64,000 nucleotides of DNA from Escherichia coli (GTDB taxonomy: Bacteria > Pseudomonadota > Gammaproteobacteria > Enterobacterales > Enterobacteriaceae), in the NCBI RefSeq assembly GCF_016026235.1, contig NZ_CP065613.1; one strand, 5' to 3'. This document shows, one piece after another, positions 33,616 through 57,443 of this stretch; the first letter of the stretch is position 1, and each line of letters opens with the position of its first letter. Position numbers and translations under genes: made by a program. The notes beneath the pieces are model-generated. The model had not been told where the DNA came from. It did not search any database and saw nothing but the letters and a program-made list of their open reading frames with translations.

Positions 33616-33661
33616 ATGAACAACGGGCAATAAATAGCCAAATCTTTCTTTATCAAAACGT

Positions 33662-33674
33662 CGGCACATTGTCG
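33662..33674. repeat. 13-bp target-site duplication, left copy, of IS4 copy 1 (cggcacattgtcg)
   Basis: Identical 13-mer directly abuts both ends of the element (second copy at 35101..35113). Confidence 0.85.
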
Positions 33675-35100
33675 TAATGCCAGTCAGTTAAGCAACTGAC
33701 TGGCTCTTTTTCGGGGCTGTGGGGTATTTCCAGGGCCTCTCCTTTACCACTCTCGGGAAGGCCCTTCCCCTTCTCGTCGGTAATTTCACAAGTTGTCCCA
33801 TACTTGCAAGATCGCGCATCAGCTCCGGTATACGTCCCGGTGAAGCGCCCTGCAATGTCATCAGCATTCTCATCACCATTCCGCATGATTCTGAGAAACT
33901 CAGTTGATTCGGCCAGTAACCTTTCAGATGTTCCGCCATTTTAATCATCTGATATCTCACCAGATTATAAGCCAGTAAGACACCCCACAGCTCTTGCTCC
34001 ACAAGCTCCGGCTTTTTACTTCTCAGCGTCAGCCTGCTCAGTTGCATCGTCTGTTTTATCTCCCTGTATCCCAGTTCGATTTCCCAGCGATGACTGTACA
34101 GATCCGCCATTTCTCCTCCGGGGAAGCGCATGGCGTCCGTCATCGACGTCAGCAGATGGCAGACTTTTCCTTTGCGCGTCACGGTCAGCAGGCGGGCTGT
34201 CACTTCATTTCCCAGTCCCGGCCACTTTTTTCGTGCCTGCGGGCTGGTTTTCAGCTTCACCAGATGATCGCCTTTACCCAGTTTTCTGAGCTCTTCATAT
34301 TGCGCTCCCTTTCTGAGAGGTATCATCCAGTGGCGGTGTTCTCCCGCCAGGCTCCAGGCATTTAACAGTCCCAGTGAGTAATAACCTTTATCCATTAACG
34401 TCAGAGTGTTATCGCCGGTTTGTTCTATAAGTTGCTCAGCAAGCTCATTTTCGCTGTTCTTCATCGTGCCGAAGGCTGCAGCCGTCAGCAGATGGCTGGT
34501 CAGTTCCATCTGGCAGACCATTTTGACCTGCGGGTAGAGCGCCGGGTTCCCGGCATGTGTCTGGCGGGGGAAGGCTGCATCGTTCTCTGGTGTATCCGGT
34601 GTGCGCCAGAACACACCATCGATGGCCAGCAGGGTCAGGCCGCACCAGTGCGGATGCGGCGTGGCGTTATGCCAGAGCTGCGCTGTTTTCGTGAACACGC
34701 GGCGGACAGCCTCACTTCCCAGGCGCTGGCGGGCCTGAATAACGGCACTGGGGGCAACGAAGGGGCGATTGCCCGGCAGCATGATGTCCAGGCGATTCAC
34801 AATCTGGTGAAGAGGTTCTTTACGCTCAAGCGCCATGCCAACAATACACCAGACCATCATTTCGAGGGGAAGACGGCGCTTGCGTAGCGTTACAGTACCT
34901 GATTCGGCAAGGCAACGAGAGATGAGTTCGGGGTCGAGGTAATCCCCCAGAGAAGTCAGTGGGTTACGCAGAGAATCGTAACGGGATACCAGATCAAGAG
35001 CCTGTCCAATGTGCATAAAAAAATCCGGAAACAAGTGAGCGTTTCCGGATTCTTACACAGCCACTGGATCGGTCAACTGATCCTTAACTGATCGGCATTA
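33675..35100 (-). mobile_element. Insertion sequence IS4, copy 1 (1426 bp)
   Basis: Imperfect 18-bp terminal inverted repeats (TAATGCCAGTCAGTTAAG / TAATGCCGATCAGTTAAG), single DDE transposase ORF, flanking 13-bp direct repeats; interrupts the aroA-loiP intergenic region. Confidence 0.93.
33688..35016 (-). CDS. insG: IS4 transposase
   Basis: 448-aa ORF (to 35034); 442 aa from the Met at [10 protein letters not shown]; recognised as IS4 family transposase. Confidence 0.9.
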
Positions 35101-35113
35101 CGGCACATTGTCG
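35101..35113. repeat. 13-bp target-site duplication, right copy, of IS4 copy 1
   Basis: cggcacattgtcg immediately after the right IR. Confidence 0.85.
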
Positions 35114-35222
35114 GCGTTTTTTTTCGGACCTTGTGAGTCATTTTGATTAATGGTAGCGTCGCTTGTCAATGTAATTTGTTGATACATAATATTTATATAT
35201 GATTAATCAACGGATGATTCAC

Positions 35223-55748: not shown

Positions 55749-55780
55749 AAGGCGGCAGCAATGCCGCCTTTTCTTTTTCC
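55749..55780 (+). terminator. Rho-independent terminator of mukB
   Basis: GGCGGCAGCAATGCCGCC hairpin followed by ttttcttttt; lies upstream of the IS4 insertion point and is intact. Confidence 0.75.
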
Positions 55781-55809
55781 GAAAACTCCGTTTCTGCACT
55801 AAAAAAGTG

Positions 55810-55822
55810 GCACATTACGGCG
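55810..55822. repeat. 13-bp target-site duplication, left copy, of IS4 copy 2 (gcacattacggcg)
   Basis: Identical 13-mer at 57249..57261 directly after the right IR. Confidence 0.85.
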
Positions 55823-57248
55823 TAATGCCAGTCAGTTAAGCAACTGACTGGCTCTTTTTCGGGGCTGTGGGGTATTTCCAGGGCCTCTCCTTTACCACTC
55901 TCGGGAAGGCCCTTCCCCTTCTCGTCGGTAATTTCACAAGTTGTCCCATACTTGCAAGATCGCGCATCAGCTCCGGTATACGTCCCGGTGAAGCGCCCTG
56001 CAATGTCATCAGCATTCTCATCACCATTCCGCATGATTCTGAGAAACTCAGTTGATTCGGCCAGTAACCTTTCAGATGTTCCGCCATTTTAATCATCTGA
56101 TATCTCACCAGATTATAAGCCAGTAAGACACCCCACAGCTCTTGCTCCACAAGCTCCGGCTTTTTACTTCTCAGCGTCAGCCTGCTCAGTTGCATCGTCT
56201 GTTTTATCTCCCTGTATCCCAGTTCGATTTCCCAGCGATGACTGTACAGATCCGCCATTTCTCCTCCGGGGAAGCGCATGGCGTCCGTCATCGACGTCAG
56301 CAGATGGCAGACTTTTCCTTTGCGCGTCACGGTCAGCAGGCGGGCTGTCACTTCATTTCCCAGTCCCGGCCACTTTTTTCGTGCCTGCGGGCTGGTTTTC
56401 AGCTTCACCAGATGATCGCCTTTACCCAGTTTTCTGAGCTCTTCATATTGCGCTCCCTTTCTGAGAGGTATCATCCAGTGGCGGTGTTCTCCCGCCAGGC
56501 TCCAGGCATTTAACAGTCCCAGTGAGTAATAACCTTTATCCATTAACGTCAGAGTGTTATCGCCGGTTTGTTCTATAAGTTGCTCAGCAAGCTCATTTTC
56601 GCTGTTCTTCATCGTGCCGAAGGCTGCAGCCGTCAGCAGATGGCTGGTCAGTTCCATCTGGCAGACCATTTTGACCTGCGGGTAGAGCGCCGGGTTCCCG
56701 GCATGTGTCTGGCGGGGGAAGGCTGCATCGTTCTCTGGTGTATCCGGTGTGCGCCAGAACACACCATCGATGGCCAGCAGGGTCAGGCCGCACCAGTGCG
56801 GATGCGGCGTGGCGTTATGCCAGAGCTGCGCTGTTTTCGTGAACACGCGGCGGACAGCCTCACTTCCCAGGCGCTGGCGGGCCTGAATAACGGCACTGGG
56901 GGCAACGAAGGGGCGATTGCCCGGCAGCATGATGTCCAGGCGATTCACAATCTGGTGAAGAGGTTCTTTACGCTCAAGCGCCATGCCAACAATACACCAG
57001 ACCATCATTTCGAGGGGAAGACGGCGCTTGCGTAGCGTTACAGTACCTGATTCGGCAAGGCAACGAGAGATGAGTTCGGGGTCGAGGTAATCCCCCAGAG
57101 AAGTCAGTGGGTTACGCAGAGAATCGTAACGGGATACCAGATCAAGAGCCTGTCCAATGTGCATAAAAAAATCCGGAAACAAGTGAGCGTTTCCGGATTC
57201 TTACACAGCCACTGGATCGGTCAACTGATCCTTAACTGATCGGCATTA
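55823..57248 (-). mobile_element. Insertion sequence IS4, copy 2 (1426 bp), identical to copy 1 and in the same orientation
   Basis: Same terminal IRs and identical 448-aa ORF translation as copy 1; own 13-bp direct repeats; interrupts the mukB-ldtD intergenic region. Confidence 0.93.
55836..57164 (-). CDS. insG: IS4 transposase
   Basis: Translation identical to the copy-1 transposase ORF. Confidence 0.9.
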
Positions 57249-57261
57249 GCACATTACGGCG
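57249..57261. repeat. 13-bp target-site duplication, right copy, of IS4 copy 2
   Basis: gcacattacggcg immediately after the right IR. Confidence 0.85.
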
Positions 57262-57443
57262 CGCTTTTCTTTAAACTTCTTTACATTAGGTTATGTAAAA
57301 ACGTATCGGCGTTTATATACTGAAGATAAGCCTGATGAGTAACAGGCTTGCTCGTCATACTTTCGTGAGTATTGGCGTTGTACAGGCAAGTCGTAAAATA
57401 ACAGCCTGGCTATTCAGAGTATGATAAAAACAGGGGGCAAGGG

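Follow-up and report, generated by a model that had tools for sequence, protein, structure and literature searches.

Two IS4 copies in an Escherichia coli window occupy sites that fit the element's symmetric A/T-arm target preference, and the 8-mer common to both sites is incidental

The two IS4 copies in the window (the whole stretch of Escherichia coli DNA that was analyzed, 64,000 nucleotides of contig NZ_CP065613.1) are most readily explained as two ordinary insertions into sites that fit an intrinsic target preference of the element, a pseudo-palindrome of about 30 bp. We put the probability of this explanation at about 0.85. IS4 does prefer targets with symmetric A/T arms, strongly so, and this has been published before. 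The 8-mer GGCACATT that both sites contain, which an earlier note on this DNA had taken for the core of the target, is incidental and is not part of that preference.

Terminal-sequence and repeat searches located the two copies at positions 33675 to 35100 (copy 1) and 55823 to 57248 (copy 2), and alignment showed that each is 1426 bp long, that they are 100% identical, and that they lie in the same orientation, on the minus strand. The IRR end of copy 1 is at 33675 and its IRL end at 35100, with the transposase open reading frame on the minus strand at 33688 to 35016. We also observed that the reverse complement of IRL is within 2 mismatches of IRR. The ends of the window elements, TAATGCCGATCAGTTAAG and TAATGCCAGTCAGTTAAG, are imperfect terminal inverted repeats that start with TAATGCC and bound an element of ~1426 bp, as in IS4. 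The 442-amino-acid transposase scores 304 bits against the NCBIfam model NF033592 (IS4 family; cutoff, 115 bits) and contains the domains PF13006 (Nterm_IS4) and PF01609 (DDE_Tnp_1); the element thus encodes one transposase, of the DDE class and the IS4 type. Both copies are flanked by 13-bp duplications, in keeping with the duplication of about one helical turn (11 to 13 bp) expected of IS4. The insG element of strain K-12 is 99.6% identical to the window copies, and identical elements in RefSeq carry the annotation "IS4-like element IS4 family transposase." By every membership feature that we tested, the element is the classical IS4 known from Shigella and E. coli; it belongs to the IS4 subgroup and is the type member of the family.

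At site 1, the 13-bp direct repeat (DR) CGGCACATTGTCG is present to the left of the element at 33662 to 33674, where it holds GGCACATT at 33663 to 33670, and again to the right at 35101 to 35113. On the plus strand, the left arm (33655 to 33661) consists of AAAA (33655 to 33658) and a 3-nt gap, CGT, and the right arm (35114 to 35124) consists of a 3-nt gap, GCG, and eight T residues (35117 to 35124). At site 2, the DR GCACATTACGGCG is found at 55810 to 55822 and at 57249 to 57261; its left arm on the plus strand (55801 to 55809) is AAAAAA (55801 to 55806) followed by the gap GTG, and its right arm (57262 to 57272, plus strand) is the gap CGC followed by TTTTCTTT. Here GGCACATT occupies 55809 to 55816, and its first G falls outside the duplication. 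The observation in the earlier note that both sites contain GGCACATT, in a register relative to the 13-bp DR that differs by 2 nt, is thus accurate as description.

Empty sites were reconstructed by removing the IS and one copy of the repeat, and a 240-nt query was used for each. Empty site 1 reads AAAA-CGT-[DR]-GCG-TTTTTTTT (in wider form, ...ATCAAAACGT[CGGCACATTGTCG]GCGTTTTTTTTCGG), and empty site 2 reads AAAAAA-GTG-[DR]-CGC-TTTTCTTT (in wider form, ...CTAAAAAAGTG[GCACATTACGGCG]CGCTTTTCTTTAA). Uninterrupted empty sites with 100% identity over the 240 nt were present in 5261 (site 1) and 5307 (site 2) of 5426 complete E. coli genomes, in the first case between aroA and ycaL and in the second between mukB and ldtD. 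The reconstructions proposed earlier are therefore correct, each of them being carried intact by upwards of 5,200 genomes of the species, and so is the remark that both sites lie just past the 3' ends of genes: site 1 is 46 nt beyond the aroA stop codon and site 2 is 65 nt beyond that of mukB. Both window sites have the same layout of A-run, 3 nt, 13 bp, 3 nt and T-run, and both fit AAA-N19-20-TTT.

We compared these two sites with a wider collection of IS4 insertions drawn from four sources. The exact transposase protein led to 10 loci, in genomes of E. coli and Shigella. A search for the IRL end in contigs representing one genome per species yielded 34 loci, none of them in E. coli (Kosakonia, Photorhabdus, Pectobacterium, Buttiauxella and others), and these matches served as half-sites. 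The IRR end matched at least 120 stretches in metagenome contigs, and a further 16 places came from complete E. coli genomes. In all, the 5426 E. coli genomes have roughly 5,478 IS4 places. De-duplication left 139 distinct half-sites (among the matches listed) and 31 distinct, fully reconstructed sites; the metagenome flanks, though de-duplicated, may contain orthologous sites from related strains.

Flanks for a half-site logo were taken next to exact end motifs. Read outward from the end of the IS, the logo of the 139 flanks, from genomes and metagenomes together, has C at +1 (73 to 82%), S at +3 and C at +4 (75 to 79%), then carries less than 0.2 bit at each position from +5 to +8, and continues with G at +9, +10 and +12 (~50 to 60%) and S at +13 and +14. 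A T-run follows from +16/+17 to +21, with 70 to 86% T from +17 to +20 and a peak at +18 (85 to 86%). The logos of the IRL side and the IRR side are the same, and the target is therefore two-fold symmetric, with the form A-run, ~3 nt, [C-N-S-C ... G-S-N-G], ~3 nt, T-run. When the duplication is 12 bp long, tracts that peak at -18 and +18 amount to AAA-N20-TTT.

The 31 full sites show how the tracts relate to the duplication. Its length is 11 bp at 4 sites, 12 bp at 16, 13 bp at 7 and 14 bp at 4. The distance between tract and DR is exactly 3 nt in 37 of the 62 arms and 2 to 5 nt in 50 of them, and both tracts lie 2 to 5 nt from the DR at 20 of the 31 sites, compared with 0.32% of random window positions. 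Bracketing by an A-run and a T-run, which the earlier note described for the two window sites, is thus real and general. Among 20 sites, the length of the duplication rises with the spacing of the tracts (r = 0.67). The distance from a cut to the tract beside it is nearly constant, in most cases 3 nt, and the spacing of the tracts thereby sets how long the duplication is. There are exceptions: one used site (L182) is a perfect dyad without either run, three others (L003, L056 and L186) have no T-run, and the site of the resident IS4 of K-12, while of the form AAA-N20-TTT, scores only 5.6 bits with the matrix described below. Since sites that are missing one or both tracts are nevertheless used, the consensus represents a preference and not a requirement. 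Four of the E. coli sites are inside genes; the insertions in ygeA, yicI and an IS66 tnpA keep most of the arm and consensus pattern (matrix scores of 13.8 to 17.3), with an A-run that is weak or absent on one side in two of the three.

A position weight matrix was built from 135 half-sites, none of them from the window, and the window, with its IS copies removed, was then searched with it for half-sites paired symmetrically. Among ~61,000 positions, site 2 ranked 1st and site 1 ranked 4th. The best match of the matrix in the 3-kb pheST region is the attenuator terminator between pheM and pheS, and its three best matches in the 5.5-kb gal region all fall within galT. We take galT and the pheST attenuator to be the two historical IS4 targets, the loci at which IS4 insertions were first characterized.

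Folding indicates that most IS4 sites are GC-rich hairpins that resemble bidirectional intrinsic terminators, and 17 of 23 sites folded into hairpins with z scores below -2. The empty aroA site folds as AAAACGUCGGCA-CAU-UGUCGGCGUUUU (-14 kcal/mol; z, -4.2), followed by eight T residues; in this reconstructed hairpin, the left gap CGT pairs with the GCG of the right arm. Although the fold is clear, a simple terminator scan of this empty locus missed site 1; pairing between its A-run and T-run probably lengthens the stem and uses up the tail. At site 2 the plus-strand hairpin is weak (-7.7 kcal/mol; z, -0.9), and in the empty locus the minus strand has a terminator-like site with a 5-bp stem. 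A stronger terminator-like hairpin after mukB, AAGGCGGCAGCAATGCCGCCTTTTCTTTTT at 55749 to 55778 on the plus strand, is unoccupied in the window, lies 60 nt upstream of site 2 and ranks 6th with the matrix. Across sites, mirrored positions agree more often within a site (4.5 of 7) than between sites (2.9 of 7), and none of 5000 permutations reached the observed value.

These hairpins raise the alternative that IS4 recognizes structure, either an extruded hairpin or cruciform or a terminator in the act of being transcribed, with the sequence consensus as a by-product. The dyad symmetry that individual sites possess beyond the consensus, the frequency of hairpins, the strong terminator-like fold of site 1, and the use of the perfect dyad without A/T runs would all be expected on this account. 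It does not, however, explain why 5 of 23 used sites, L009 and the K-12 site among them, are non-palindromic, with agreement at just 1 of 7 mirrored positions, or why site 2 was used in preference to the stronger hairpin upstream of it. The four E. coli sites inside genes also speak against a need for hairpins. High-scoring sites that are unoccupied in the window are hairpins as well, and the dyad may simply accompany the one abundant natural source of A-run-N-T-run sequence; terminator-like hairpins are the main natural supply of the motif, and an apparent preference for dyad structure may be no more than a reflection of that supply. A GC stem of no particular sequence, moreover, gives no reason to expect C at both position 1 and position 4 while position 2 is unconstrained, and Tn5-like DDE transposases are known to act on duplex targets. 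We therefore regard recognition of structure as rather unlikely, and we favor recognition of the duplex by a symmetric transpososome, with bending or deformability that depends on the tracts.

A different question is whether IS4 chooses its targets at all. Most IS4 sites are intergenic and follow gene 3' ends, where insertions should be nearly neutral, so a distribution of this kind might also arise if IS4 inserted roughly at random and only the copies in harmless spots after genes persisted. The reuse of individual sites argues against this. The junction between the aroA flank and IRR, which corresponds to the orientation in the window, was found in 39 E. coli genomes, and the junction between the aroA flank and IRL, which corresponds to the opposite orientation and was sought with a chimeric query, was found in 68, at up to 100% identity; in strain P27_L1_05.20, IS4 lies between aroA and ycaL in the opposite orientation with the identical 13-bp DR. 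At the mukB site, IS4 is present in the orientation of the window in 18 genomes and in the opposite one in 2. One site inside another IS has been used in opposite orientations (L006 and L062, with DRs of 11 and 12 bp), and the eno-ygcG site has been used twice independently, with DRs of 14 and 13 bp. Nucleotide-exact reuse in both orientations goes beyond what inheritance or selection on neutral positions can produce and therefore indicates true target choice. Selection is equally unable to account for the fixed 3-nt distance to the tracts or for a fixed preference for C at positions 1 and 4 beside a free choice at position 2, and the insertions in ygeA, yicI and IS66 tnpA carry most of the consensus pattern in spite of being inside genes. 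Survivorship is accordingly a very improbable explanation.

The proposal that IS4 selects its targets by sequence or structure and not at random thus stands, on the strength of the symmetric logo, the predictive matrix and the exact reuse of sites, but the particular core that was proposed with it does not. Among the matches listed, GGCACATT occurs on either strand at none of 111 other distinct IS4 sites, that is, at only the window's own two of 113, and 2 of the others are within 1 mismatch of it, compared with 1.4 expected from shuffles. The flank collection and logo for which the earlier note called gave a divided answer, with enrichment of the A/T-tract symmetry and none of the GGCACATT core, which falls by the refuting condition that the note itself had set.

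What can be said for GGCACATT as the determinant that the transposase truly recognizes is that the exact 8-mer is present in both empty window sites and that the site between yddM and fdnI has GGCACCTT, one mismatch away, in a similar placement. Any common 8-mer in the first 15 nt is seen in only 0.5% of pairs of IS4 sites, and its presence at both window sites is therefore an uncommon coincidence, but one without recurrence; judged from these two sites alone, it may reflect a weak local preference. The logo, however, is almost free of information at positions 5 to 8, and the ATT half of GGCACATT falls in this uninformative interior; measured from the cuts, the 8-mer is displaced by 2 nt between the two sites; and a matrix without any such core already places both sites at the top. 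When the DRs of the two sites are aligned by their cuts, they agree at 4 of 13 positions (4, 10, 12 and 13), all of them on or beside consensus positions. We consider it very improbable that GGCACATT directs IS4. The CGGCG-containing segment named in the earlier note likewise differs in register between the two sites and simply belongs to the 3' half of the hairpin stem, which is rich in G/S.

Two apparent relatives of the core were set aside. GCACATT at the start codon of the transposase gene (ATGCACATTGG) is shared with no other site, and a 7-mer such as this is expected ~0.17 times in 2.8 kb. The flank of the insertion in fiu (L185) had been considered as a third GGCACATT site, and alignment to fiu of K-12 showed that its 13-mer is not native to the gene.

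Descent of the sites from one repeat family, or copying of flanks between IS4 copies, is the least credible explanation of all: although the IS4 in fiu of strain RMDEC465 has CGGCACATTGCCG, which resembles the aroA DR, at its IRL junction in place of the expected fiu duplication, so that flank-proximal sequence apparently sometimes travels with IS4 unless this case is an assembly artifact, empty versions of the two sites that already contain the core are found at 100% identity in thousands of loci that lack IS4, so that GGCACATT predates the insertions and was not imported with them, the two sites are unrelated outside the 8-mer, and GGCACATT is not a repeated element of the window (5 matches compared with 3.15 expected).

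Ordinary insertion into preferred sites can be put in mechanistic terms. The target consists of an A-run, a gap of ~3 nt, a segment of 11 to 14 bp that becomes the DR, a second gap of ~3 nt whose sequence is complementary to that of the first, and a T-run, and this pattern is supplied mainly by GC-rich hairpins with A/T-run flanks just after genes and occasionally by sequences inside genes. Each half-site would be read by a two-fold symmetric transpososome, a dimer of a Tn5-like DDE transposase holding both ends of the element. The A/T tracts probably act through bending or deformability of the DNA or through a narrow minor groove, and the C residues at positions 1 and 4 are probably contacted in a base-specific manner, close to the scissile phosphates.

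A more tentative extension, which we think possible but on balance doubtful, is that IS4 is a terminator-homing element with a "tract ruler": strand transfer would take place ~3 bp inside each A/T run, the duplication of 11 to 14 bp would be set by the spacing of the tracts and not by a fixed stagger, and the insulation of the locus would be roughly preserved. On the tract-ruler reading, the duplicated segment holds the upper part of the hairpin, so each junction would keep an outward-facing hairpin beside a T-run; the right DR copy of site 1, together with GCG-TTTTTTTT, still scored as a terminator-like site with a 5-bp stem. IS4 may also bring inward-facing, terminator-like hairpins at both of its ends, in which case the retained outward hairpins and the supplied inward ones would together keep the transcriptional insulation of the locus roughly as it was.

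Mayaux et al. are said to have arrived in 1984 at the IS4 consensus 5'-AAA-N20-TTT-3' from sites in galT, in the pheST attenuator and in the K-12 chromosome, and Lee et al. reportedly described 8 de novo IS4 insertions, from mutation-accumulation lines, in 2016. Relative to the published consensus, our sites involve the same element (1426 bp, with 11- to 13-bp duplications) and the same symmetric arms of A-run and T-run, and nothing essential differs; the K-12 site, the logo and the match of the matrix to the pheST attenuator are all consistent with AAA-N20-TTT. De Palmenaer, Siguier & Mahillon 2008 (PMC2266710) also describe arm specificity for the IS4 subgroup. We found no statement on IS4 targets in a paper on Shigella IS elements or in a plasmid-repository paper. 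Beyond that consensus, our data contain the C-N-S-C/G-S-N-G pattern inside the duplication, the 3-nt rule and a class of 14-bp duplications; these may be refinements, modest ones, and perhaps are already published. The tract ruler and the retention of hairpins would likewise amount to a modest mechanistic refinement if they are absent from the older literature. The practical yield is that the arm specificity already published is borne out at more than 100 natural IS4 sites, and that the landing places of IS4 can be predicted with a simple matrix. This is of use for the annotation of IS4 hot spots, the aroA and eno terminators being examples, and in recognizing IS4-mediated rearrangements in E. 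coli and Shigella.

Among known systems, IS231A reportedly targets GGG(N)5CCC, a symmetric, GC-rich sequence between bent, A/T-rich flanks, and makes duplications of about one helical turn. It resembles IS4 in belonging to the IS4 family and in having a symmetric consensus with A/T flanks, and it differs in the core consensus and in the spacing. Its natural target is the ends of Tn4430, whereas IS4 is found mainly at terminator-like hairpins. For the target preference of IS231A, PMC2266710 cites Hallet et al. 1994 (Mol Microbiol 14:131).

Tn10/IS10 and Tn5/IS50 are like IS4 in that their transposases belong to the same superfamily and that a symmetric consensus reflects a two-fold transpososome. 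At their hot spots, flanking sequence reportedly modulates use (Bender & Kleckner 1992). Unlike IS4, whose duplications of 11 to 14 bp vary with the spacing of the tracts, these elements have a fixed 9-bp stagger and no A/T-run arms.

Several elements home to terminators or palindromes: Tn7 inserts at attTn7 in the glmS terminator, class C group II introns insert after intrinsic terminators, and IS1397 and ISKpn1 insert into REP/BIME palindromes. Like IS4, they use hairpin-bearing and mostly neutral sites downstream of genes, but recognition is unrelated, since TnsD binds protein-coding DNA, the intron RNA pairs with its target, and IS1397 and ISKpn1 are specific for REP sequences. IS4 further differs from Tn7, group II introns and IS1397-type homers in that it also uses sites within genes that bear its motif.

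The copy of IS4 that follows aroA (window positions 33675 to 35100, with IRR at 33675 and IRL at 35100) carries a strong terminator-like hairpin just inside each of its ends, and both of these hairpins point inward. The one at the IRR end lies on the plus strand at positions 33679 to 33710 and reads GCCAGTCAGTT-AAGC-AACTGACTGGC followed by TCTTTTT, with a folding energy of -18.7 kcal/mol. Its counterpart, on the minus strand at positions 35015 to 35060, lies upstream of the transposase ATG and has the form AAUCCGGAAAC...GUUUCCGGAUUUUUUU (-24 kcal/mol). These inward hairpins would stop read-through out of a gene whose terminator has been split by the insertion. After insertion, positions 35101 to 35124, which comprise the right copy of the repeat and GCG-TTTTTTTT, continue to score as a short terminator-like site with a 5-bp stem. 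Because the upper hairpin sits within the duplication, a hairpin beside a tract is kept at each IS4 junction. The transposase start, at positions 35011 to 35021 on the minus strand, reads ATGCACATTGG, so that GCACATT, the 7-mer considered in relation to the core common to both window target sites, is present within IS4 too, adjoining a T-run; with an expectation of ~0.17 per 2.8 kb for a 7-mer, we took this occurrence as chance.

Several metagenome right flanks among the matches listed belong to one family, CAGCC...GCTGCCGTTTTTTTATTC, one of them being the raiA-bamD site in E. coli, and these flanks probably represent an orthologous terminator that has been targeted repeatedly in different strains or species. 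In E. coli EC1722-1, the target in the ybaY-MGMT intergenic region is a perfect dyad, TAACCCT[CTCCGGGCGGAG]AGGGTTA, without A or T runs and with a score of just 6.8 by the position weight matrix built from 135 IS4 half-sites outside the window, which hints that dyad symmetry alone is sometimes enough. The fiu::IS4 locus of E. coli RMDEC465, a genome with 32 IS4 copies, has an unusual IRL junction: at locus positions ~1616 to 1628, the duplication CCCCGGCGTGGG expected from fiu is missing, and the 13 nt found there, CGGCACATTGCCG, do not occur in K-12 fiu and differ from the aroA-site repeat by one base. Directly upstream, AAAACGT is present in both the fiu and aroA sites. IS4 copies may have exchanged sequence here by gene conversion, or the junction may be an artefact of assembly or polishing.

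In ~119 members of the E. coli genome collection (5,426 genomes), the empty site between mukB and ldtD is not intact, and only 20 of these have an IS4 junction at the exact position of the mukB site. In the others, the mukB terminator close by, sixth in the matrix ranking, may have received an IS4, or the locus may hold a different insertion or variant. In the E. coli 2020S05-013 series (two of the collection matches, H29 and H38, and others), the mukB-flank/IRR junction and the aroA-flank/IRL junction are separated by only ~1.4 kb, and hence a single IS4 lies between the mukB and aroA 3' ends. Such a layout is the mark of recombination between inverted IS4 copies at the two hot spots, which inverts the stretch from aroA to mukB. 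The two window copies (33675 to 35100 and 55823 to 57248) are 100% identical and in direct orientation, and the segment between them spans ~20.7 kb, from ycaL to mukB. The pair with this segment is a composite-transposon-like unit and a predicted substrate for recombination leading to deletion or duplication.

On a 265-bp contig of Methylobacterium mesophilicum NBRC 15688, the IS4-end flank is identical to the resident IS4 (insG) site of E. coli K-12; this contig probably entered the assembly as contaminating E. coli K-12 DNA. Across the E. coli collection, the only IS4 100% identical to that of the window is on the 294-kb plasmid pCFSAN029787_01; chromosomal copies reach at most 99.7% identity. 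A distinct IS4 allele is common to Shigella and EIEC (Hawkey et al. 2020), which, together with these identities, suggests a Shigella/EIEC-type lineage as the source of the window.
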